The notes under the pieces are model-generated. The model worked only from the letters and a program-made list of their open reading frames with translations. It made no database searches and had not been told where the DNA came from. A stretch of 64,000 nt of DNA from Candidatus Omnitrophota bacterium (GTDB taxonomy: Bacteria; Omnitrophota; Gorgyraeia; Zapsychrales; Zapsychraceae). Below are positions 1,177-25,006 of this stretch, in pieces (position 1 is the stretch's first letter; each line of letters opens with the position of its first letter). The position numbers were made by a program, and so were the translations under genes. Where the stretch lies: contig DATDQB010000008.1 in NCBI GenBank assembly GCA_035292445.1, positions 40,033-104,032 on the forward strand. Reading direction: 5' to 3'.

Positions 1177-3054
1177 ATGAGCAAAAAGAAAAAAAGGTAC
1201 AAAGCCGCTGCGCCGCAAATGGACGTTACCCCGAAGCCTCCCGCCGTCAAAGGGCATTGGGTCGGCTTGGTAACGATTATCCTGCTGGGCTTTCTGATTT
1301 ATTCCAATTCACTGCGCGGTGAATTCCAATTCGACGACTGGCACTACATTGTCAATAACCCCACCATTAAAGATGTCGGGAACTTCCAGCTTTTCGACCG
1401 CCTGAGCACGAGCCTGCGGGTGCGTTACGTGGCGTTTCTGACGTTCGCGTTGAACCACCACTTTCACCAGCTAGACACCTTCGGGTATCATCTTGTTAAT
1501 TTGTTGATCCACCTCATCAACGGGATGCTGGTGTATTGGCTCGCGTTATTGGCGCTCAATACGCCAAAAATGAATGTACGGGGGCCTGTCCCCAGGCCCC
1601 CTTCGGAGGGCGGCTGGGGACAGCCGCCCCTACATGAGCATCATGGCTCGGCCGCCTTATTTGCGGCATTGATATTTCTGGCGCACCCTCTTCAAACAGA
1701 AGGGGTGACGTACGTGGCGCAACGCTTCACTTCGCTGGCCGCGTTATTTTACTTGCTGTCCGTTTGTTGTTACATGCAGGGGCGGTTATCGCAAATACGC
1801 AACAGCACGTTATTTTTTATCGCCTCCATCTGCGCCGGCGTTCTGGGCATGTTCACGAAACAAATAACCATCACCCTGCCCGTAACCATCCTTTTGTGTG
1901 AATTCACTTTTTTCGAGCGCCATAACAAAAGGGGTAGCGTTTTCTGGGTTGTGTCGATCATTTTTCTTTTGGCGGCCCTTTTTATTCCTTCAATCTATTC
2001 CTTTAAGTTTTCAAATATTTTCTTCACCGAGAGCGCTTCCCATTCCCATTTCGGGGACATATTAACCGGTAAGACGTATTTTTTAACGCAGGGAAGGGTC
2101 GTGGCCACATATATCCGATTGCTCTTTTTTCCGTTGAACCTGAACTTGGATTATGATTTCCCGATGTCCCAAAGCTTGTTGGAACCTAAAACATTGGCGT
2201 GTTTTGTTCTTCTTTTTAGTATCGTGGCGGCGGCCGTGTTTCTTTTTCCGAAACGCCGGCTTATGGCATTCGGAATTTTGTGGTTCTTTATTTGTTTATC
2301 CGTTGAATCAAGCTTCATCACCATCGCCCATGTCATCTTTGAACACCGCGTGTATTTGCCGATGGCCGGGTTCGCTTTGTTTTTATCGGCCGCAATCTTT
2401 GAATTGATCCCTGTAGGGAACGGTTTGCCCGCCAGAGGCGGGTCCGCCTTTGGTGGAAAACCGTTCCCTACAAGGATTTTCGTCATATTCATTATTATCA
2501 CCATTTACGCGACCTTGACTTATCAGCGCAACAAGGTTTGGCAGACGGAAATTGCGCTTTGGAGCGACGTGGTCAAAAAATCGCCCCGCAAATACAGAGG
2601 ATACTACACCCTTGGCATGGCGTACGGGAAAACGGGGGACAGGGAGAAAATGGTGGACCTTTTTAAGAAGGGCCTTGAGCTTGAGCCGGTAAACCCAAAG
2701 GTTTATAACAATTTGGGGATCGCTTATAGCAAGATCAACGTCACTGAGGCTATTGGATATTTTGAAAAGGCCGTTGAGCTCGACCCGCAGTTCACGGAAG
2801 GCTACACGAATTTAGGAGCCATGTATGTCCAGTATAATGATATGGAAGGGGCGATACGCGCGTTCAGGAAAGCGGCGCAGCTGAACCCCAATTACGCGCC
2901 GGCTTACAATAATCTCGGCGTCCTTTTGATGCGCCAGGGGGATCTCAAAGAAGCGAAAAGCCATTTCGAGAAGGCCGTCACCCTCGATAAAACGTACAAA
3001 GACGCCCACATCAACTTGAGCCAAGTCAATAAATTCCTGGCCGGCAAGAAATAA
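1177..3054 (+). CDS. polytopic membrane protein with C-terminal TPR repeats (GT39/PMT-like glycosyltransferase-family architecture)
   Basis: There are about 10 hydrophobic helices in the first ~450 aa. The C-terminus has repeated TPR signatures (YYTLGMAYGKTGD, YNNLGIAYSK, YTNLGAMYVQ, YNNLGVLLMRQGD). Confidence 0.6.
   Translation: MSKKKKRYKAAAPQMDVTPKPPAVKGHWVGLVTIILLGFLIYSNSLRGEFQFDDWHYIVNNPTIKDVGNFQLFDRLSTSLRVRYVAFLTFALNHHFHQLDTFGYHLVNLLIHLINGMLVYWLALLALNTPKMNVRGPVPRPPSEGGWGQPPLHEHHGSAALFAALIFLAHPLQTEGVTYVAQRFTSLAALFYLLSVCCYMQGRLSQIRNSTLFFIASICAGVLGMFTKQITITLPVTILLCEFTFFERHNKRGSVFWVVSIIFLLAALFIPSIYSFKFSNIFFTESASHSHFGDILTGKTYFLTQGRVVATYIRLLFFPLNLNLDYDFPMSQSLLEPKTLACFVLLFSIVAAAVFLFPKRRLMAFGILWFFICLSVESSFITIAHVIFEHRVYLPMAGFALFLSAAIFELIPVGNGLPARGGSAFGGKPFPTRIFVIFIIITIYATLTYQRNKVWQTEIALWSDVVKKSPRKYRGYYTLGMAYGKTGDREKMVDLFKKGLELEPVNPKVYNNLGIAYSKINVTEAIGYFEKAVELDPQFTEGYTNLGAMYVQYNDMEGAIRAFRKAAQLNPNYAPAYNNLGVLLMRQGDLKEAKSHFEKAVTLDKTYKDAHINLSQVNKFLAGKK
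1578..1648 (+). repeat. GC-rich palindromic unit inserted in frame inside the 1177-3054 CDS
   Basis: cgggggcctgtccccaggccccc is a 7-bp inverted repeat. gggcggctg-ggga-cagccgccc is a 9-bp perfect stem. The unit is followed by cgcccctacat, an 11-mer also present at 23178-23188. It encodes the P/G-rich peptide RGPVPRPPSEGGWGQPPL. Confidence 0.45.
2418..2482 (+). repeat. GC-rich palindromic unit inserted in frame inside the 1177-3054 CDS
   Basis: tgtagggaacggttt pairs with aaaccgttccctaca, a 15-bp perfect inverted repeat. It flanks cccgcc-agag-ggcggg. The same CCCGCC/GGCGGG stem recurs at 37181-37195. The unit encodes PVGNGLPARGGSAFGGKPFPT. Confidence 0.45.
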
Positions 3055-3063
3055 GGAAGTTCC

Positions 3064-3435
3064 ATGGAACGAAAATATAAAATGATGCTCAAAGGGATGT
3101 TGCGCAAGGAAAGGCGGGGAAGAAAAGAAACGTGGTTCATCTATGTCCTTAGGTGCAAGGACGATACTTTCTACACGGGCGTGACAAAAGATATTGACCG
3201 GCGCCTGAAAATGCATAATAATGGCAAGGCATCACGCTACACCCGTACCCGACGGCCGGTCGCCTTGATATATCAGGAGAAGGCCAGGGGGAGGGCCAAG
3301 GCGCTGGTGCGCGAATGCGCGATCAAAGCGATGTCGCGTAAAATAAAAGAAAAATTAATTAAAGGCAAGAAACAGTTAGCAGTCGTCAGACGTAAGTCAT
3401 CAGAAGTCGTCAGGCTGATAGCTTCTGAAGACTGA
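3064..3435 (+). CDS. GIY-YIG nuclease family protein (UPF0213-like)
   Basis: WFIYVLRCKDDTFYTGVTKDIDRRLKMHNNGK matches the GIY-YIG core. Confidence 0.75.
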   Translation: MERKYKMMLKGMLRKERRGRKETWFIYVLRCKDDTFYTGVTKDIDRRLKMHNNGKASRYTRTRRPVALIYQEKARGRAKALVRECAIKAMSRKIKEKLIKGKKQLAVVRRKSSEVVRLIASED

Positions 3436-3453
3436 TGACTGATAGCTGACGAC
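3380..3453 (+). repeat. nested inverted/direct repeat structure overlapping the 3' end of the GIY-YIG gene
   Basis: agtcgtcag (3380-3388) pairs with ctgacgact (3445-3453). agtcatcag (3394-3402) pairs with ctgatgact (3431-3439). The two stems are separated by a symmetric 5x5 internal loop. There is a second direct copy of agtcgtcag at 3404-3412, and ctgatag is repeated. Confidence 0.4.
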
Positions 3454-3475
3454 TAAAAACAGAAAGGAGTTTATA

Positions 3476-4572: not shown

Positions 4573-7500
4573 TTGTCGCCCCCGCAGCCGCCACCTACCG
4601 AATCCCTTCTGATCGTTCAGGATGACAAGCCCATTTTAAGTCCTCCCGTTTACCCGTCCATTCTTGTATTTCAGGTGCCCTCAACAAAAAAAATCAGCGT
4701 TCTTCAACCCATTGGAACAGTGCCGCTAATGAGCGGACAAAATTTCATGAAGCACTATTCAGGGGCTATTTTTTTAAACACAGCCGATACTATTCAAGCG
4801 CAGGAAATGCTTGAGAATCTACCGGATGTCCAGGTGCCCCAGGAATCTCAGAAACCTACTAGCGTGCTTGTGCGGCGTTCTTCCGGACAGAGTTCTTCAG
4901 CACCGGAAGGGGAAAGCGAGGAGTCCCAGCTTGTTGTTTTATCCGATAAAGCTATTCTTGTTTCCAATGAGCCTTCCGCAGAAGATCAGTTGGCGTTGGC
5001 CAGCGAAGATTTAGACGGCAGCGTTCTTGTTCATGCCTTTGAAAAAGACAATTACTCATTAGAAAAAGATGTCCTGAATTTATCCAAAGTAAAGGCTGTT
5101 TTGGTTACCGATAGTTTGATGATCGATGAAAAAGAGATCGTTCCTGAAGTTTCTTTGACCGATGCCCAGGATGACGCCAAGGATAAGCCAGCGGGATCAG
5201 CGCCAACGGAGGTGACAACGGAAGGGACCGTCTCCATAGAATCTGAAGAAATCGTTTACAAAGCCCCGGAATCAGTTTCCTTGATCCGTAATTTGCGCAT
5301 TATCGATCCGGATGATTATGCCAGTGATCCGCTGACGATGGCCAATATCGATGAGCACATCAGCCTGGTCAGTCAAAATGTCCAGTTGGTTCCAAGTACC
5401 GTGGTAACAGCGGAAGGAACACAACAGGCCGAGGCGCCCGTTGAGGAAAAATACTACAGCTATGTCCCGGGACGGTTTATCGTCCAATTCAAAAGCGACT
5501 GGCCGCACGCACTGGAAAGATGTGCCCAGAAGATATTCACCACCGGAGAGTCTTTCCAGGATTATCTTTCTGACGGCTCTTCTTCCATCGACCAATTAAA
5601 CAAGATTTGCCAGGTAAGAAAAGTCAAAGGGTTGTTCGTCAGGCGGGGGAAGTTGTCCACGCAGGAAGCGCAGACGATGCAGGATGAGAAGGTCAGGGTC
5701 ATCAAGAAGAGATTCGCCAAACGTGCGTTAAGGGCCAAGAGGGATGGACAGAAGGCTCCCGAGCTTTTTAACACGTATATTTTTGAGGTGCCGCCGGGCA
5801 GTGACATTAAGAAGATGTGCCAGTTGTATGAGGCTGACCCGCACGTGGCCTTTGCCCAGCCAGATTATCTGGTGTTCTCAACCGTGTTCCCGGCCACGGC
5901 GCCGGATGACCCTTTGTATGAACCTTTGATGTGGGCGCTGAACAATACGGGCCAGACAGGAGGGGCAACCGATGCCGATATCGACGCCCCGCAGGCCTGG
6001 CTTTTGAATTTGGGAGACAACATCATTGTGGCGGTCAATGATACGGGTGTTGATTATGAACATGCGGACTTGGCAGATAACATCTGGATAAATCCAATAG
6101 AAGACATAAATAGTAATGGGGTGGTGGATGGGACAGATACCTGCCCGACAATTAACGGCGACTTTAATTGCCTCGATGATGACGGCAACGGTTATGTTGA
6201 CGATATTCGAGGCTATGATTTCGCCAATCTGGATACGGATCCTATGGATACGTATGGCCACGGAACAATGGTGGCCGGGATTATCGGGGCTGTTACGGAT
6301 AATGATGAAGGTATTGCGGGTGTTGCACCGAATGTGAAGATCATGGCCCTGAAGGGTTTTCCCGATGGAGAGAATGTATTAGGCTCTACGTCAGACTTGG
6401 CGGAAGCTATTGTTTACGCAGCCATGAACGGTGCTGATGTCATTAATAACAGTTGGGGATGTTTTCCGCCGAGCTGCCCTTCAAATCCGGTTGCTGAGGC
6501 AGCGGTCAACACAGCCTATGGTTTAGGTGCTGTTGTGGTGTTTGGCGCTGGCAACGACGATTTGGATATCAACGATATAAGCCCGCAGAATATGCAGCCT
6601 GAAACGATTGCCGTGGCAGCGACCGACCACGATGATGTAAGGGCCATTTTTTCCAACACGGGGACACTGATCGATCTGGCAGCTCCCGGCGTGGATGTCG
6701 TCTCAACGTGGCCGCTGAACAATTATGCGTTAGCTGACGGGACATCGTTTGCCGCGCCTCATGTGGCGGGTGTGGCAGCATTGATCATCTCCGAGTACCC
6801 GAGCTATACCAATGACCAGGTCCGGATTATCCTGCGCGATTCAACCGATGATATCGATGCCGCAGGGTTCGACAGCAATACGGGGATGGGGCGGTTAAAT
6901 GCGCAGAAAGCGCTGGCGCTGACAAACGTTTCGCCGTTTTTGAACCCTGTTGGGAACAAGACGGCCAATACAGGCATTCTTTTGCAATTTGACGTGACGG
7001 CTTTTGATCCCAGAAGTGACCCCGTGACGCTTTCGGCGCAACTTTCCGGAGGCGCTGCTTTGGGCACCATCGGCGCGACTTTTGTCGATAATGGAAACGG
7101 GTCGGGGACCTTTTCCTGGACGGCGAATGTCGGCCAGGGTGGATTGGACCCGTCGGTTGAATTCACTGTCACGGACTCTCCGGGAGGTTTTACGGATTCA
7201 GAAACCATTACGATTACGGTCAATCTCACCGGGGCTACTTGCGGCAATAACATCCTTGAGCCGCCCGAGGAATGTGATGACAACAATCTGGTCAACGGTG
7301 ACGGATGCTCGGCCTCCTGCACGATCGAATTGTGCGGTGACGGTGATGTTGATTTCGGTGAAGAATGCGATGACGGCAATCTCATTGACGGCGACGGTTG
7401 CGACGGCATTTGTGACATTGAATTCTGCGGGGACGGAGCGATCAATAACGGCGGCGGTGAAGAATGTGACGATGGGAATTTTAACAGCGGAGATGGTTGT

Positions 7501-8103
7501 TCCAGTACTTGTTTGGATGAAATTTGCGGCAATAGTCGCGTCGATTTCGGCGAAGGATGTGATGATGGCAATTTAGTTGCCGGGGATGGCTGCGATGGCA
7601 GTTGCCAGATCGAGCCGGATTGCGGCAACGGGGCCGTTGAAGCGGGCGAGGAATGCGATGACGGCAATCTGGTTGACGGGGACGGCTGTGACGAGCAATG
7701 TGTCGATGAGCTTTGCAGCGATGGGATCGTCAATGACGGCGGTATCGAAGAATGCGATGACGGCGATCTGGATGACGGGGACGGCTGCTCTTCCGTTTGT
7801 TTGTTGGAAGTCTGCGGGAACGGGATTACGGATCTCGCTGTCGGCGAAGAGTGTGACGATGGCAACGTGAGCGATGGGGACGGGTGCTCATCGGATTGTT
7901 TCTTAGAAACTTGCGGGAACAGCCGTACGGATTTCAGCGAAGAATGCGATGACGGCAATGCCGTTGAGTTGGACGGATGCTCTTCAACATGCCAGATCGT
8001 CGGCGTTTGCGGTAACGGAGTCTGCGAAGTGGACGGCGAGGAAACGTGCGTCAACTGCCAAGCCGATTGCGGTTATTGCCGGGGGCTGCGCCCCAGGGAT
8101 TAA
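4573..8103 (+). CDS. secreted subtilisin-like serine protease (peptidase S8) with an I9 propeptide and a C-terminal array of Myxococcus-type cysteine-rich repeats
   Basis: The catalytic triad is present in context: Asp in NDTGVDYEHADL, His in DTYGHGTMVAG, Ser in DGTSFAAPHVAG. The propeptide covers ~res 295-440 (FIVQFKSD…HVAFAQPDYL). After res ~890 there are about 10 repeats of the form CGNGxxExGEECDDGNxxxGDGCSxxC (TIGR02232-like). The true start is uncertain. Confidence 0.85.
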   Translation: MSPPQPPPTESLLIVQDDKPILSPPVYPSILVFQVPSTKKISVLQPIGTVPLMSGQNFMKHYSGAIFLNTADTIQAQEMLENLPDVQVPQESQKPTSVLVRRSSGQSSSAPEGESEESQLVVLSDKAILVSNEPSAEDQLALASEDLDGSVLVHAFEKDNYSLEKDVLNLSKVKAVLVTDSLMIDEKEIVPEVSLTDAQDDAKDKPAGSAPTEVTTEGTVSIESEEIVYKAPESVSLIRNLRIIDPDDYASDPLTMANIDEHISLVSQNVQLVPSTVVTAEGTQQAEAPVEEKYYSYVPGRFIVQFKSDWPHALERCAQKIFTTGESFQDYLSDGSSSIDQLNKICQVRKVKGLFVRRGKLSTQEAQTMQDEKVRVIKKRFAKRALRAKRDGQKAPELFNTYIFEVPPGSDIKKMCQLYEADPHVAFAQPDYLVFSTVFPATAPDDPLYEPLMWALNNTGQTGGATDADIDAPQAWLLNLGDNIIVAVNDTGVDYEHADLADNIWINPIEDINSNGVVDGTDTCPTINGDFNCLDDDGNGYVDDIRGYDFANLDTDPMDTYGHGTMVAGIIGAVTDNDEGIAGVAPNVKIMALKGFPDGENVLGSTSDLAEAIVYAAMNGADVINNSWGCFPPSCPSNPVAEAAVNTAYGLGAVVVFGAGNDDLDINDISPQNMQPETIAVAATDHDDVRAIFSNTGTLIDLAAPGVDVVSTWPLNNYALADGTSFAAPHVAGVAALIISEYPSYTNDQVRIILRDSTDDIDAAGFDSNTGMGRLNAQKALALTNVSPFLNPVGNKTANTGILLQFDVTAFDPRSDPVTLSAQLSGGAALGTIGATFVDNGNGSGTFSWTANVGQGGLDPSVEFTVTDSPGGFTDSETITITVNLTGATCGNNILEPPEECDDNNLVNGDGCSASCTIELCGDGDVDFGEECDDGNLIDGDGCDGICDIEFCGDGAINNGGGEECDDGNFNSGDGCSSTCLDEICGNSRVDFGEGCDDGNLVAGDGCDGSCQIEPDCGNGAVEAGEECDDGNLVDGDGCDEQCVDELCSDGIVNDGGIEECDDGDLDDGDGCSSVCLLEVCGNGITDLAVGEECDDGNVSDGDGCSSDCFLETCGNSRTDFSEECDDGNAVELDGCSSTCQIVGVCGNGVCEVDGEETCVNCQADCGYCRGLRPRD
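7237..8040 (+). repeat. about 10 tandem ~111-bp coding repeats, one per cysteine-rich module
   Basis: gaatgcgatgacggcaat…gacggctgctc recurs with high nucleotide identity. The repeats also generate a spurious 416-aa P/S-rich antisense ORF at 6804-8054. Confidence 0.7.
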
Positions 8104-10062: not shown

Positions 10063-11259
10063 ATGGCCGATGAAACCTTCACGGATTTTACGCAGCCTTT
10101 AAAAGTACTGGTCGTTGAAGACAGCAACATCGACCGGCGCATCTTGGAGTCGATGCTCCAGGAAAAGGAAGAATACAGCGCGCTTCTTAAGGTCGCTGAT
10201 TCGTTGGCGAAAACGCTTCAGCTCTTTGACGAATTTGAGTTTGATGTGGTTATCCTTGATCTGAATTTGCCCGATAGCCAGGGTGAAGAAACGCTCTTCA
10301 AACTGACGGCAAAGAATCCTAAAATTGCCGTGGTTGTCAATACGGGAGCCTACGAAGACCGGGTGGGCTTAAAGACGTTAAGCATGGGCGCCCAGGATTT
10401 TCTCGTTAAAGGTAAATACACGGCGTATCTGTTGAACAAGGTCCTTCATTACGCCGTTGAGCGCAAACGTTTCGAGCTCAAGCTCAAGGATGCCTACGAA
10501 AAACTGAAAGAAACGCAATCGCAGCTGATCCATGCCGAGAAAATGAAGGTGATCGGCGCTTTGGCGAGCGGGGTCGCCCACGAGGTCAAGAATCCCTTGG
10601 CGACCATCCTTTACGGGATCACGTACCTGTCGGAGGTACTGGACCCAAAAGATGAGAAGCTTCAAACGGTATTGCGCAATATCAAAGACGCCAGCGGCCG
10701 GGCGGATAGGATCATCACGGATTTGTTGGATTTTGCCCGGTTAAGGCAGTTGAAAAAGGAAAAACAAAATATCAACGATGCCATTGAAAAAACACTGGGA
10801 CTGATCAAGCACGAATTGGACCGAAAGCACATTCAAATGGAAAAACGATTAAGCAAAGATCTTGCGGCCGTGGAAATCGATGCCAATAAAATCGAGCAGG
10901 TATTGGTCAACTTGATGCTCAATGCGATTAATGCGATGGAACGTGATGGGCGCTTAACGGTGACCAGTGCTGCGGTTGAACTTTCAGAGGATTTGCACGA
11001 AATCCCCGACCTTCACCGCCGGCACTTTAAGCCCAACGATAGGGTCGTTCGCGTGACAGTGGAGGACACCGGAGGCGGCATACCGGCCGGTGAATTGGAT
11101 AAAATTTTTGAGCCTTTTTTCACCACCAGGCGCGCCGAAGGCGGCCTGGGTCTGGGGCTGTCGGTTTCCAGGAACATCATGGAAATTCACGAAGGGAGCA
11201 TCTCTATTGAAAATAAGAAAGAAGGGGGTGCGCAAGCAGTGCTGCATTTCAAAATTTGA
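10063..11259 (+). CDS. cytoplasmic hybrid histidine kinase (REC-HisKA-HATPase_c) with no sensor or transmembrane domain
   Basis: The RBS AAGGAGA precedes ATG 10063. The REC domain has VVILDLNLPD. The HisKA domain has GVAHEVKNPLATI. The HATPase domain has GGGIPAGELDKIFEPFFTTR…GLGLGLS. Confidence 0.8.
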   Translation: MADETFTDFTQPLKVLVVEDSNIDRRILESMLQEKEEYSALLKVADSLAKTLQLFDEFEFDVVILDLNLPDSQGEETLFKLTAKNPKIAVVVNTGAYEDRVGLKTLSMGAQDFLVKGKYTAYLLNKVLHYAVERKRFELKLKDAYEKLKETQSQLIHAEKMKVIGALASGVAHEVKNPLATILYGITYLSEVLDPKDEKLQTVLRNIKDASGRADRIITDLLDFARLRQLKKEKQNINDAIEKTLGLIKHELDRKHIQMEKRLSKDLAAVEIDANKIEQVLVNLMLNAINAMERDGRLTVTSAAVELSEDLHEIPDLHRRHFKPNDRVVRVTVEDTGGGIPAGELDKIFEPFFTTRRAEGGLGLGLSVSRNIMEIHEGSISIENKKEGGAQAVLHFKI

Positions 11260-11280
11260 CACCGGGAGGTAAGTTGCTTT

Positions 11281-11667
11281 ATGGAAGAAAAAAAGAAAAT
11301 ACTTATCATCGATGACGAAAAAGGCTTCACTTCCATGTTGCAATTGAATTTAGAGTCCATAGGAGAATATGAAGTGAGGGTTGAAAACCGGGCTGAGAAG
11401 GCCCTAGAGATCGCTTTGCAGTTCCAGCCCGATATTATTCTTCTTGATGTCATCATGCCAAATGTGGAAGGGCCGGACGTGGCCAACATCATTCACACCA
11501 ATGAGGGGTTAAAGGACATCCCTATTATTTTTCTTACGGCCACCGTTACCAAAGATGAGGTGGATGCCCAGAACGGGAAGATCGGCGGGCATACTTTTGT
11601 CGCCAAGCCGAGCAGCCTGTCCGATTTGACCACTTCCATCAAAAGAAACCTGTTACCCGCGTTTTAG
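11281..11667 (+). CDS. single-domain response regulator (CheY-like REC)
   Basis: KILIIDDEKGF…IILLDVIMPNVEGPDV…IIFLTA is a REC domain. Confidence 0.8.
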   Translation: MEEKKKILIIDDEKGFTSMLQLNLESIGEYEVRVENRAEKALEIALQFQPDIILLDVIMPNVEGPDVANIIHTNEGLKDIPIIFLTATVTKDEVDAQNGKIGGHTFVAKPSSLSDLTTSIKRNLLPAF

Positions 11668-19109: not shown

Positions 19110-19526
19110 ATGAAAATATCAGCTAAAACAGATTACGCGTGCCGGGCATTAATGGAGTTGGCGCTGCATTGGCCCAATCAGGTGCCGTTGCAGATAGGCG
19201 TTATAGCCGTTCATCAGAAAATCCCGGTTAAGTATTTGACCCAGATCTTGATCAGTTTGAAGCAACTGGGATTGGTAGAAAGCATTAGGGGGCAAAAGGG
19301 GGGATATATTTTAGCAAGGCCGCCTCAGGAAATTACGTTAAGAGAAGTTATCCAAAGTTTTGATGGGGTGGGTCAGGGAAGCCAAAAGAAGAAAACATCC
19401 GATATCTTCTCTTATATATGGCAAGAGATTGCCGAAGAAACGTGGCGGATCATGGACAAGATCACTTTTGATGAGATCATCAGGCGGGAGCGCAACCTCA
19501 ACAAGGTTGCGATGTTCACTATTTAA
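19110..19526 (+). CDS. Rrf2-family transcriptional regulator (CymR/IscR-like)
   Basis: MKISAKTDYACRALMELA is the Rrf2 HTH. It is the first gene of the cysP-cysK-cysH-cysD-cysN cluster, as CymR is in Bacillus. Confidence 0.8.
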   Translation: MKISAKTDYACRALMELALHWPNQVPLQIGVIAVHQKIPVKYLTQILISLKQLGLVESIRGQKGGYILARPPQEITLREVIQSFDGVGQGSQKKKTSDIFSYIWQEIAEETWRIMDKITFDEIIRRERNLNKVAMFTI

Positions 19527-21435: not shown

Positions 21436-22164
21436 ATGAAACCGGAAAAACAAATAAAAAATTTATTGGAAAAATCCAAAGGTAAATCGGCTGGAGAGAT
21501 TATTCAGCTTGCTTATGAAGCCTTTGGCCAACGGATCACTTTTGCCACAAGCCTTGGCGAAGAGGACCAGGTGATCACGGATATGATCGCCAAAATCGCG
21601 CCGCAGATCGAGATCTTTACCCTTGATACGGGGCGCTTGCACCAGGAAACGTATGATCTTTTAGCCAAAACGCAGAAAAAATATAACAAGGTTACGTTCA
21701 AAGTATATTTTCCCGATGCCAAAAGAGTTGAAGATATGGTGCGTATCAAAGGCATCAATTTGTTTTATGAAAGCATTGAGAACCGCAAACTCTGCTGCGG
21801 CATCCGTAAGGTTGAGCCGCTACAGCGTGCATTAAAAGATGTCGATGCCTGGATAACGGGCTTGCGCCGCGCGCAGTCCGTTACTCGCGCCGATGCGAAA
21901 GCTTTCGAATGGGACGAAGCGAATAAAAAGATTAAAGTCAACCCGTTGGTCGATTGGAATCTGGAGCAGGTCAAAGAGTATATAAAAAAGAACAAAGTTG
22001 ACAGTAATCCTTTGCACGCCAAAGGATTTATCAGTATCGGTTGCGCCCCGTGTACACGCGCCGTTAAACCCGGTGAAGACATCCGCGCCGGGCGGTGGTG
22101 GTGGGAGGAACCCGAACAGAAAGAGTGCGGGTTGCATAATAATCCAAAGAGAAAAAAGGAATGA
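21436..22164 (+). CDS. cysH: assimilatory adenylyl-sulfate (APS) reductase, Fe-S type CysH
   Basis: ITFATSLGEEDQVITDM is the PP-loop. KLCCGIRKVEPL together with SIGCAPCTRAV gives the CC…CxxC cluster cysteines. The C-terminus has KECGLH. Confidence 0.85.
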   Translation: MKPEKQIKNLLEKSKGKSAGEIIQLAYEAFGQRITFATSLGEEDQVITDMIAKIAPQIEIFTLDTGRLHQETYDLLAKTQKKYNKVTFKVYFPDAKRVEDMVRIKGINLFYESIENRKLCCGIRKVEPLQRALKDVDAWITGLRRAQSVTRADAKAFEWDEANKKIKVNPLVDWNLEQVKEYIKKNKVDSNPLHAKGFISIGCAPCTRAVKPGEDIRAGRWWWEEPEQKECGLHNNPKRKKE

Positions 22165-22249
22165 ATTGTTAATAGTCAATAGTAAATAGGCGGTGTATTC
22201 AAAAAAGACACAATTAACTATTTACTATTAACCATTAACCATTAACAAT
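22165..22249 (+). promoter_or_regulatory. AT-rich imperfect palindrome between cysH and cysD; candidate operator or RNA hairpin
   Basis: attgttaat (22165-22173) pairs with attaacaat (22241-22249). aatagtaaatag (22178-22189) pairs with ctatttactatt (22218-22229). The right arm also carries 3x tandem ttaacca. Confidence 0.3.
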
Positions 22250-22264
22250 CATGTCAATTTAGAT

Positions 22265-23158
22265 ATGAACAAACAAATGACAAAACTCGACAGCCTGGAA
22301 TCCCAGAGCGTCTTTATATTAAGGGAAGCTTACCGGCAATTCAAAAGCCTGGTCATGCTTTGGTCCATCGGCAAAGACAGCACAGTCCTTTTGTGGTTGG
22401 CCCGTAAAGCCTTCTTTGGTCACGTACCGTTTCCGCTGGTCCACATCGATACAAGCTATAAAATTCCGGAAATGATCGCGTATCGGGATAAGTTAGCCAA
22501 AGAAATGAAGCTAAATATGATCGTCGGTCAAAACAAAGCTGCCTTACAATCTAAGCGGACGTTCCCAGACGGCGCCATTACCCGCATGGATTGCTGCAAG
22601 GCTTTAAAGACGGAAGCATTAAAGCATACCCTTGCCGGTGATTGGCCAAGATATAGGCTCAATCATGAGACTGGAAAGTATGAAGAAGATAAAAATAAGG
22701 AACCTTACACCGGTGTCATCGTTGGCGCGCGCGCGGACGAAGAGGGAAGCCGTTCCAAGGAGCGGTATTTTTCCCCGCGGGACCGCAACAGCGATTGGGA
22801 TGTGGGCGACCAGCCGCCGGAATTATGGAACCAGTTCAAGACGGATTTTGCGCCCGGGACCCATTTAAGGATCCATCCGTTATTGGATTGGACCGAACTT
22901 AACATTTGGGAATATATCGAGCGTGAGAATATCCCCATCACCAAATTATACTTCGACCAAGGGGATAGTAAACGGTATCGTTCGTTGGGTTGCTATCCGT
23001 GTACAACACCGGTTGAATCAACAGCGAAAACCGTGCATGACATTGTGGAAGAATTAAGGGCCGGAAAATTTGCCAACATCGCGGAGCGTTCCGGCCGTGC
23101 CCAGGATAAGGAAGACGGCGGCGGGTTGGAGACGCTGCGCCTGGAAGGGTATATGTAA
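22265..23158 (+). CDS. cysD: sulfate adenylyltransferase subunit 2
   Basis: [17 protein letters not shown] is the PAPS-reductase-like PP-loop. The C-terminus is typical of CysD. Confidence 0.9.
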
Positions 23159-23159
23159 C

Positions 23160-23188
23160 GTAGGGGCGACCCGCCGGGTCGCCCCTAC
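23160..23188 (+). promoter_or_regulatory. intercistronic GC-rich hairpin between cysD and cysN
   Basis: gtaggggcgaccc-gcc-gggtcgcccctac is a 13-bp perfect stem. It starts 2 nt after the cysD stop and is followed by attttcatt and then the cysN ATG at 23198. Confidence 0.4.
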
Positions 23189-23197
23189 ATTTTCATT

Positions 23198-25006
23198 ATG
23201 AAAACAATCGAAAAAGAACAAATGAACGTTGTCATCGTTGGTCATGTGGATCACGGCAAAAGCACACTCATTGGGCGATTACTTGCCGATACAGGCTCTT
23301 TACCCAAGGGCAAGCTTGAAGCTGTTCAAGAAAATTGCCGCCGGAGTGCCAAACCTTTTGAGTATGCTTTTTTACTGGATGCTTTAAAAGATGAGCAATC
23401 CCAAGGGATCACTATTGATACGGCACGGGCGTTTTTCAAATCCAAAAAACGCGACTATATCATCATCGATGCGCCCGGGCATATCGAATTCTTAAAGAAC
23501 ATGGTCACCGGTGCCGCGCGGGCCGAGGCGGCCATATTGGTTATCGATGCTAACGAAGGTATTAAGGAAAATTCCAAAAGGCACGGCTACATGATGTCGT
23601 TTTTGGGCATCAAAAATTTGACGGTGTGCGTCAATAAAATGGACCTTGTTAAATACGATCAGAAAATATTCGATAAAATAAAAGAAGAATACAACGAATT
23701 CCTTAATGAGATAAATTTGCAGCCGCGTTTTTTTATCCCGATGAGCGCCCGGGAAGGGGATAACGTAGCCCAAAGATCAAAACATATGCTTTGGTACAAA
23801 GAAGAAACCGTTCTGGAAGCGCTTGACCAATTCGAGAAAGAAGCGCCCAAATACGAGCAGCCTTTCAGGTTTCCCATCCAGGATATCTATAAATTCACCG
23901 AGCAGGGAGATGATCGAAGGATTTTTGCCGGGAGGGTCGAGTCCGGAACGATCCATACGGGAGATGAAGTGATCTTTTTGCCTTCGGGCAAGACTTCCCG
24001 TATTAAAACCGTTGAGGGTTTTAATCGACCGAAAACAGAGGAGGCCTTTGCCGGCCAAAACACCGGTTTTACGCTCGACACCCAGATTTTTATTAAGCCC
24101 GGTGAGGTTATGGTCCATCGTAAACAGACGCTTCCGTATGTCAGCACCAAGATCAAGGCCAATATTTTTTGGATGGGCAAACAACCCTTTGTCAAAGGCA
24201 AGAACTACAAATTAAAATTGGCCACCCAGCAAGTGCCGGTCGTATTAAAAGAGATTTTGGGAGTTTTAGACGCCTCCGAACTATCCTCCATCGCCAATAA
24301 GCCGCAGGTGGACCGCCATGATGTGGCCGAGTGCGTTTTAGAAACGCTCAAGCCGATCGCTTTTGATGAAGTCAGCCAGATCTCGGAAACGGGACGGTTT
24401 GTGCTGGTGGATAATTATGAGATCGTTGGGGGCGGGATCATTTTAGCCCCGATATTTGAGGAAGGGTCTTCTTTAGGCCAGTATATCAAAGATAGGGAAC
24501 AAAGCTGGGTCAGAAGCGATATCACGGCTTCCAAGCGCTCGCAGCGGCTTAACCAAAAGCCGCTGTTATTGATCATCACGGGAGAGATGGATACCGGTAA
24601 AAAAGAGATCGCCAAGAGAGTGGAAGAGGAGTTATATAGCCAAGGAAAGTTCGCTTATTTTTTGGGGATTTCAAACGATGTGTTATCCTCAGCTGAAAAA
24701 ACCAATGACCGGACATTGGGCAAGGTCCAACATATCCGTCAAATAGGTGAACTGGCCCACGTCATGACCGATGCCGGGCTAATCTTGATCACGAGCGTGT
24801 CTGACATGGATGAATACGACTTAAATATGATCAAAACCCTTAATCGCCCCAACCAGACGCTGGTCGTTAATTTTGGAGAAAGCGCGATTCCCCCGAACCA
24901 GATCAATCTTCAAATCGATCAATCCCCAGACAAGCAAGAAGCCGTCCGCAACATCTTACAGCTCATCAATCAAAATGCTTTCCTAGATCCAGAATTCAAT
25001 ATCTAA
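23198..25006 (+). CDS. cysN: sulfate adenylyltransferase subunit 1 (GTPase) fused to a degenerate APS-kinase-like C-terminal domain
   Basis: [19 protein letters not shown] is the G1 motif. The C-terminal ~170 aa align to CysC but the P-loop reads [12 protein letters not shown] instead of TGLSGSGKST, and DGDN is replaced by GISN. Confidence 0.85.

Follow-up and report, generated by a model that had tools for sequence, protein, structure and literature searches.

A glycosyltransferase gene carrying two palindromic segments

The stretch of DNA analysed here (the window) comprises 64 kb of the 152–154 kb contig DATDQB010000008.1 from a Candidatus Omnitrophota bacterium; its GC content is about 47%, and its genes are densely packed and nearly all on the + strand. 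One of them (1177–3054, + strand) encodes a 625-residue protein with an N-terminal multi-helix glycosyltransferase domain of the GT-C fold (PMT/TMTC-like) and C-terminal tetratricopeptide repeats (TPRs). Its coding sequence (CDS) contains two palindromic segments, E1 and E2, for which the best explanation as a whole, and in our judgement the probable one, is that they are copies of repetitive extragenic palindromic (REP) elements of the GTAG-tagged type that became fixed in this gene.

The host protein corresponds to HLF17786.1 of a Candidatus Omnitrophota metagenome-assembled genome (ENA ERZ27254861). It features an FDD motif at residues 52–54 within the GT-C domain, the TPRs make up its C-terminal quarter (Pfam matches at residues ~540–617), and many of its 3147 homologues are labelled protein O-mannosyl-transferase. 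In the AlphaFold2 model (mean pLDDT 84, pTM 0.88) the N-terminal 475 residues form a multi-helix bundle, and the best structural matches of the model are the GT-C glycosyltransferases ArnT, AftB, PglB and STT3 (TM 0.43–0.46). Based on this model, the product of 1177–3054 is predicted to be a GT-C-fold membrane glycosyltransferase with C-terminal TPRs.

E1 (1576–1633, + strand) is a 58-nt dimer of the kind termed REPIN (REP doublet forming hairpins), lies in frame and encodes residues 134–153 (VRGPVPRPPSEGGWGQPPL). It is composed of two 26-nt units, each consisting of a tag, a 9-bp stem and a 4-nt loop, which are arranged in inverted orientation with the tags outermost. The left unit (1576–1601) reads GTAC+GGGGGCCTG-TCCC-CAGGCCCCC, with its hairpin portion at 1580–1601, and is separated by a 6-nt spacer (TTCGGA, 1602–1607) from the right unit (1608–1633), which reads GGGCGGCTG-GGGA-CAGCCGCCC+CTAC, with its hairpin portion at 1608–1629. 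The two units differ at two stem pairs, both fully compensated (G-C to C-G) so that each unit hairpin is perfect, which indicates that the hairpin was kept symmetrical after insertion. Across the units, 29-nt arms (1574–1602 and 1607–1635) are 83% complementary; the palindrome spans 1574–1635, and the minimum-free-energy structure is a single long hairpin of -49.1 kcal/mol (z = -4.7), equalled by none of 200 dinucleotide shuffles. Each of the unit motifs occurs once in the window, where shuffled sequences predict 0.01–0.02 matches.

E2 (2413–2471, + strand) is a nested palindrome of 59 nt, likewise in frame, and encodes residues 413–432 (VGNGLPARGGSAFGGKPFP). Its outer arms, GTAGGGAACGGTTT and AAACCGTTCCCTAC, belong to a perfect 15-bp stem (TGTAGGGAACGGTTT and AAACCGTTCCCTACA, at 2412–2426 and 2458–2472), and an imperfect palindrome reaches from 2407 to 2477, that is, 6 nt past the REP arms into the adjoining codons. 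The inner 31 nt (2427–2457) consist of a G followed by two small hairpins, CCCGCC-AGA-GGCGGG and TCCGCC-TTT-GGTGGA, which are imperfect inverted copies of one another. The inner stem includes two G-U pairs that can form in the sense strand but not in its complement, and folding is slightly more favourable for the sense than for the antisense strand (-56.1 vs -52.5 kcal/mol; z = -9.6 for the former, again equalled by none of 200 dinucleotide shuffles). E1 and E2 represent the first- and fourth-longest inverted repeats of the window.

A first reading of the window, made from its letters alone (the sequence-only reading), had drawn attention to both segments. The palindromic motifs that it quoted are all present, namely the two unit hairpins of E1 and the 15-bp stem of E2, and the ORF (open reading frame) translation confirms that both segments sit in frame in a continuous ORF and encode the quoted peptides. 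Its segment limits, 1578–1648 and 2418–2482, have to be moved to about 1576–1633 and 2413–2471, and the loop that it gave as agag in the inner hairpin of E2 is the 3-nt AGA. The description of both segments as GC-rich applies to E1, which includes one of the window's most GC-rich 40-mers (GC 0.82), but not to E2, where the GC content is only moderate (about 0.55–0.59).

The two segments were also said to lie between transmembrane helices, and the AlphaFold model supports this placement. E1 is preceded by a helix at residues 101–127 and a short one at 130–133 and followed by a helix at 152–169, while E2 is flanked by helices at 395–410 and 432–454. The only internal stretches of the model with a pLDDT below 50 are residues 136–139, in E1, and 417–428, in E2; both segments are modelled as coil (pLDDT 63 and 55 for residues 131–150, 59 and 45 for 411–430). 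When the protein was aligned to its 59 best homologues (36–43% identity), a check that had been suggested, both segments emerged as extra residues missing from the homologues, in nearly all of which the two loops measure only 5–7 residues, and the reading frame continues through conserved motifs on either side of each segment. A variant of the host protein from another assembly and contig, with one substitution elsewhere, keeps both segments unchanged, which argues against an assembly artefact. According to the model, E1 and E2 would thus each add to the protein a disordered, P/G-rich loop extension of about 20 residues, which the fold can accommodate.

Related elements in the window, in paralogues and on other contigs

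A third element, E3 (23160–23188), is a 29-nt perfect GTAG-headed palindrome (GTAGGGGCGACCCG-C-CGGGTCGCCCCTAC) within the 39-nt gap between a cysD-like gene (22265–23158) and a cysN/C-like gene (23198–25006). The sequence-only reading had submotifs of E1 and E2 recurring in intergenic palindromes elsewhere in the window; this holds for E3, which is the sole intergenic GTAG-hairpin element seen there, and for no site beyond it. All three elements begin with GTA[G/C]GG and finish with CC[C/G]TAC. E2 and E3, as well as the paralogue 28-mers described below, carry GTAG...CTAC at both ends, whereas the right unit of E1 ends in CTAC and its left unit starts with the variant GTAC. The basic module is in each case a short GC-rich stem-loop (26 nt for the E1 units, 29 nt for the compact form of E2 and 29 nt for E3), and E1 shows the layout of a REPIN, two inverted REPs with a short spacer that can form a single long hairpin. 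E1 is therefore described here as a two-unit REPIN-like dimer and E2 as a REP whose apex encloses a second, small pair of hairpins. Rfam returned no match in the window at gathering thresholds, and permissive filters gave only sub-threshold matches to generic miRNA hairpins.

The window contains other inverted repeats. Hairpins of another kind, richer in AT and made up of inverted arrays of short (~7-nt) repeats, occur at 3381–3454 and 22164–22249; the former overlaps the final codons of a small, stand-alone ORF with a GIY-YIG nuclease domain (3064–3435, 123 residues), the latter lies in the gap between a PAPS-reductase-like gene (21436–22164) and the cysD-like gene. The GIY-YIG ORF is located directly downstream of the host gene, and no evidence ties it to the palindromes. 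An inverted repeat at 19339–19414 (23-nt arms, 83% complementary) within a gene for an Rrf2-family regulator (19110–19523) may be due to chance. A large secreted subtilase (Peptidase_S8; 4573–8103), whose C-terminal part carries many Cys-rich 'CGDG..ECDDGN' repeats in a long array (DUF4215-like), is unrelated to the palindromes.

The best homologue of the host protein, P0004, contains the peptide NVGAVREPPL in both of the equivalent loops (loop 1 corresponding to E1, loop 2 to E2), and this peptide was predicted to back-translate to a palindrome of the GTAGGGGCG type. The DNA of its locus, L001, confirms the prediction: both loops bear the perfect 28-mer GTAGGGGCGGTTCGCGAACCGCCCCTAC, and the neighbouring paralogue P0089 has a third identical copy, in frame, at loop 2 and no insert at loop 1. 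L001 and the window apparently belong to one genome, since they stem from the same sample, their proteins fall in the same accession series (HLF17786/HLF18369/HLF18371) and, amongst 68 loci, L001 has the tetranucleotide signature closest to that of the window (r = 0.91, vs 0.95 between the two window halves). At the protein level P0004 and P0089 share 49% identity, but in DNA they are ~90% identical over ~100 nt around the loop-2 REP (L001 8710–8850 vs 11170–11310, in tandem paralogues), which points to local gene conversion as the source of this pair of copies.

Taken together, the available 92 kb of this genome hold six GTAG-hairpin elements, three of them identical. Five of the six, representing four independent events, are inside CDS, in loops of the GT-C/TPR family, which accounts for ~7 kb of the 92 kb, and all five are read in the GTA-GGG frame. 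The 28-mers match a cosmopolitan consensus, and in a paralogue of 50% identity their codon boundaries (MN|V...L|H) are exactly those of the diverged E1. The peptides VGAVREPPL and RGGSRTAPT are translated footprints of this 28-mer; in annotation they should be treated, like VGNG(F/L)KPFPT, as footprints of repeats and not as protein motifs.

To follow the 28-mer beyond this genome, JGI metagenomes were searched with the pattern GTAGGGGCGG-N8-CCGCCCCTAC. The search gave at least 120 stretches (34–72% GC), of which those listed were analysed; 68 of the 120 listed matches contain the exact 28-mer, on contigs of 37–72% GC. The other loop variants are mostly palindromic themselves (CTCGCGAG, ATCGCGAT and GTCGCGAC amongst others), representing compensatory variation. 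Most of the listed copies have no long ORF across them and are thus mostly intergenic, as befits a REP, while at least five are clearly intragenic among the matches listed. In-frame copies were found in an alanyl-tRNA synthetase, the central loop of an MFS transporter (two elements), the linker of a BTAD-ATPase regulator, a CadC-like regulator just past its membrane helix, and a loop of another membrane protein. The notion that the 28-mer is specific to the GT-C/TPR family was rejected, as no family member is among the ORFs of at least 100 residues that span the 120 listed copies. The 28-mer GTAGGGGCGGTTCGCGAACCGCCCCTAC was encountered in many environments (L081–L200) and also on viral contigs from IMG/VR (L201–L212). 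Horizontal spread could account for its identity across very different genomes, as could a recognition site under strong constraint. A full-text search of the literature for strings of the GTAGGGGC type produced only unrelated primer or promoter sequences.

In two of these proteins, footprints of REPs stand side by side in one loop: VGADRELPL...VGAAREPPL in the MFS transporter (L172) and AIQESPL...VGAVREPPL in the CadC-like regulator (L128), an arrangement that suggests repeated insertion at or beside an existing element. E3-type units share several metagenome contigs with the 28-mer and are also present on 12 IMG/VR stretches. On one contig that also carries the 28-mer (L126), three E3-type GTAG units (at 5578, 5884 and 6197) are spaced ~310 nt apart, two at the ends of a 200-residue ORF and one within it; an interpretation as a tandem repeat was rejected.

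Both E1 and E2 have relatives on other contigs. A 57-nt element of the E1 type, GTAG-GGGCGGCTG-TCCT-CAGCCGCCC-GAAAC-GGACAGCCG-GGGA-CGGCTGTCC-CTAC, is present in three identical copies between genes on the phage-like contig IMGVR_UViG_3300029305_011967. It contains the right unit of E1 (one unit being 25/26 identical) and follows the same design of two hairpins with the tags outermost. The copies (L213 646–702; L214 3956–4012 and 6766–6822) are embedded in longer conserved intergenic repeats (TGATTCAGA...element...ACGTGGGAGGA), and the contig has terminase- and portal-like ORFs. REP-type elements on phage genomes could provide a route of spread. The outer arms of E2 occur as a compact 29-nt REP, GTAGGGAACGGTTT-N-AAACCGTTCCCTAC, on five IMG/VR contigs, exact on four and with a single mismatch on the fifth, from which we conclude that E2 is this REP with the 31-nt double hairpin nested at its apex. 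Only these five paired palindromic occurrences were used, as matches to the lone 14-mer GTAGGGAACGGTTT in viral contigs are mostly due to chance. Two viral-contig matches to the left-unit stem of E1, GGGGGCCTG-N4-CAGGCCCCC, lack the GTAG tag, resemble ordinary hairpins and were likewise not used.

With respect to the copies that the sequence-only reading had proposed to count, related units thus exist in the window, in paralogues and on other contigs, while second copies of E1 and E2 as such were not recovered from the 92 kb of this genome. Its interpretation of the segments as short palindromic mobile repeats is supported, with mobility itself suggested by the distribution of the copies.

Probable insertion and persistence, and alternative explanations

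If E1 and E2 are REP-type insertions, the literature on GTAG REPs suggests that a REP-associated HUH tyrosine transposase (RAYT) acting on single-stranded hairpins would have copied the elements into DNA in the single-stranded state. Spread between paralogues would have occurred by local gene conversion, and hairpin symmetry might later have been kept by compensatory change or by hairpin-templated correction. Copies in a CDS would survive only if the frame is kept, the frame in which GTAG yields a stop is avoided and the loop is permissive. The persistence of E1 and E2 would then be owed to their inter-helix loop sites, the kept frame and a GTA-GGG frame free of stop codons, with the surviving copies translated as flexible coil rich in P, G and R.

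A number of observations weigh against this explanation. Neither E1 nor E2 was seen a second time in the 92 kb of this genome or in ~3 Mb of other loci plus the viral loci, so that their links to the family rest on the shared head, the shared architecture and relatives on contigs of other organisms. The location of five out of six elements in one gene family is not expected from random insertion and loop tolerance alone, and the cosmopolitan 28-mer is never found in the GT-C/TPR family among the 120 listed copies. Flanking direct repeats or a target-site duplication are absent from E1, E2, E3 and the three 28-mers, and the 120 sampled copies of the 28-mer revealed no target-site motif, their flanks showing no consensus beyond a weak T at -1. 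The search for a transposase was negative as well, each of the screens being a weak negative. Pfam detected no Y1_Tnp/RAYT in 34 ORFs of the window, although a RAYT gene is normally single-copy and one would be unlikely within 64 kb; a strict HUH...Y..NP pattern applied to the loci found no RAYT; and a crude phmmer search of the sampled loci with IS200 TnpA/RAYT-like queries gave only an unrelated IS200-like ORF (L042) and a weak match (L175).

Hairpins were also compared across the GT-C/TPR family. Those with perfect stems of 12 bp or more occur at 8.7 per 100 kb in family ORFs, 1.5 in neighbouring ORFs and 16.9 in intergenic DNA, corresponding to a ~6-fold higher density in family ORFs than in neighbouring ORFs. 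Out of 104 insertions of at least 6 residues relative to the family hidden Markov model (HMM), 16 have stems longer than the 99th percentile of the background; in family CDS, random 75-nt windows put this percentile at 9 bp, compared with the 15-bp perfect stem of E2. In two Omnitrophota genomes, whole paralogue families have hairpins at the same loop. In the second of these, OFTM38 (JAJDCA010000018.1; L006, L008), a tandem array of 12 GT-C/TPR paralogues, 47–81% identical and forming one clade, carries in 12/12 members a loop-1 palindrome that is REPIN-like too, but different and headed by GTAAAC, with none at loop 2. These elements, of the type AACCGTAAAC...GTTTACGGTT, are 40–73 nt long and include a 70-nt perfect palindrome with no loop; some paralogues have another at a further loop. 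Their stems are perfect over 15–35 bp, yet when a given arm is compared between copies the median identity is only 63%, so that the arms co-evolve. Homologues from Nitrospirota/Thermodesulfovibrionales (L053, L062, L066, L038, L033) carry in-frame hairpins of heptamer repeats at HMM positions 174, 322 and 376, which are insertion hot spots of the family; these are of the same style as the hairpins at 3381–3454 and 22164–22249 of the window.

Such data raise the possibility that the hairpins, whether or not they originated as REPs, are structures retained by selection for a benefit to the gene family, for example as mRNA hairpins that pause translation after a transmembrane segment emerges, as sites of RNase processing or stability, or as DNA sites for recombination between paralogues. 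The filling of the same two loops in three paralogues of this genome, the perfect loop-1 stems of all OFTM38 paralogues despite diverged arms, the ~6-fold enrichment over neighbouring ORFs, the use of the same hot spots by heptamer-repeat hairpins, and the sense-only G-U pairs and slightly stabler sense fold of E2 would all be consistent with such exaptation. In most homologues, however, both loops are free of inserts, as is loop 2 in OFTM38 and loop 1 in P0089, and elsewhere the elements are found in unrelated genes or, for the most part, in intergenic DNA. The enrichment, moreover, derives almost wholly from two genomes whose paralogues form clades, so few independent events are needed: a few old insertions followed by duplication and gene conversion suffice. 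Perfect arms, too, can persist without selection, as a known mutational bias corrects quasi-palindromes. We therefore regard selection for a function as unlikely, and the family concentration as best explained by few old insertions with subsequent duplication, conversion and turnover of elements in place rather than by a dedicated function.

What old insertions, duplication and conversion leave unexplained is the presence of consensus-identical 28-mers at the codon boundaries of E1, which in-place replacement by an active REP type would explain. One could extend this thought and view the inter-helix loops of the family as long-term harbours of hairpins, in which the arms are actively kept complementary and the resident element can be swapped for a currently active REP in a kind of cassette exchange at GTAG/CTAC. 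We consider this version improbable. If true, it would imply retention for as long as paralogues take to reach ~50% identity and would explain why old paralogues have 28-mers of consensus sequence at precisely matching codon boundaries; co-option of the hairpins, e.g. for translational pausing or paralogue recombination, might then have occurred as well.

A less probable alternative still, and in our view a very unlikely one, is that the palindromes arose in situ, by template switching or inverted duplication of local sequence during replication, and were not imported as dispersed elements. The lack of second copies of E1 and E2 in this genome would agree with a local origin, as would the 6-nt continuation of the E2 palindrome into the flanking codons, the perfectly co-evolving arms in OFTM38, and the extension of palindromy by at least 4 nt into the flanks of 9/120 listed 28-mer copies, where ~0.5 would be expected. 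De novo generation is, however, not expected to recreate the sequences observed: the GTAG/CTAC tags and the 10-nt head (GTAGGGGCGG) are common to a widespread family, an E1-type dimer and the E2-arm REP recur on unrelated contigs with the compared parts 25/26 and 28/28 identical, and three identical 28-mers occupy distinct paralogue sites. Finally, fast-evolving low-complexity loops with incidental palindromy, or chimeric joins in the assembly, could be invoked given that loop length varies among homologues and several of these have unrelated insertions, but this is scarcely credible for segments that fold 4.7 and 9.6 standard deviations better than shuffles, include a 15-bp perfect stem where the 99th percentile of the background is 9 bp, leave the reading frame and conserved flanking motifs intact, and belong to a protein present in NCBI, ENA and Logan assemblies as well as in the one-substitution variant.

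Insertion of REP-type elements, as the favoured explanation, makes this gene a clean, well-bounded example of protein loops encoded by REP/REPIN repeats, from a candidate phylum that has received little study. The analysis also brought to light a cosmopolitan 28-mer that is found on phage-like contigs too, the nesting of small hairpins in the apex of a REP, and the co-evolution of arms within paralogue families.

Comparison with known palindromic repeat systems

The sequence-only reading had likened the segments to Rickettsia palindromic elements (RPEs). The likeness extends to behaviour, as RPEs (Ogata et al., 2000, as cited in PMC3733652) are palindromes that sit in frame in functional genes and whose translation yields segments at the protein surface or in loops. 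The elements described here are set apart from RPEs, going by the description of the latter, in being GTAG-tagged, 58–59 nt long and from another lineage, and kinship was rejected because the short RPEs, RPE-4 and RPE-6, are classed as CGTC-type and RPE-1 is much longer (PMC3733652). Miniature inverted-repeat transposable elements (MITEs) that overlap ORFs, such as QMITE1/2 of Coxiella (PMC5896051), Nezha and Correia, are likewise small non-autonomous repeats that extend or interrupt ORFs, and QMITE2 even contains a GTAG REP (PMC5896051). MITEs measure 70–400 bp and have terminal inverted repeats and target-site duplications, whereas E1 and E2 are 58–59 nt and nearly all hairpin; they are too short and lack flanking direct repeats, so this assignment was rejected as well.

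With the REPIN-RAYT systems (Bertels and Rainey, 2011, PMC3116915) E1 shares the arrangement of two inverted REPs with a 6-nt spacer in one long hairpin, and an element of nearly identical architecture exists in several identical copies on another contig. E1 differs from REPINs in having heterologous units (83% complementary), each of which forms its own hairpin, and no cognate RAYT, in such systems a single-copy gene that REPs typically flank, was identified in the sequence screened.

The closest counterparts are the GTAG REPs, which are characterized by a terminal GTAG beside a short (about 20–40 bp) GC-rich palindromic stem-loop and frequently form inverted dimers with short spacers (Di Nocera, De Gregorio and Rocco, 2013, PMC3733652), and for which a RAYT is hypothesised as the mobiliser (PMC3733652). 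The assignment to this class, which comprises the published consensus families GTAG-1 to GTAG-24, is by tag and architecture. Differences exist: GTAG REPs are mainly extragenic and close to gene ends, whereas the copies in the available sequence of this genome are mostly intragenic and in one paralogue family; several copies consist of one perfect palindrome with a tag at either end; in E2, one element sits nested at another's apex; and no RAYT was found in the sequence screened here. The elements agree with GTAG REPs in the terminal GTAG or a degenerate form of it, a stem-loop with a stem of 6–13 bp, inverted dimers and in-frame copies. Intragenic GTAG REPs in frame encode 20–30 residues as dimers, sometimes two per ORF, and are catalogued in several phyla, most of them in Opitutus terrae (PMC3733652); this case is close to ours also in that our host phylum belongs to the PVC group or stands near it. 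In-frame palindromic insertion as claimed by the sequence-only reading therefore stands, with GTAG REP/REPIN and not RPE as the family, and the behaviour is less exceptional than its suggestion of a feature unusual outside a few lineages. In-frame GTAG REPs as such are already known (PMC3733652), though seldom in so clear a form. What is added here is a host amongst the Omnitrophota and a GT-C glycosyltransferase gene as the site of insertion, which extends the catalogue of in-frame REPs past the cultured genomes surveyed in 2013.

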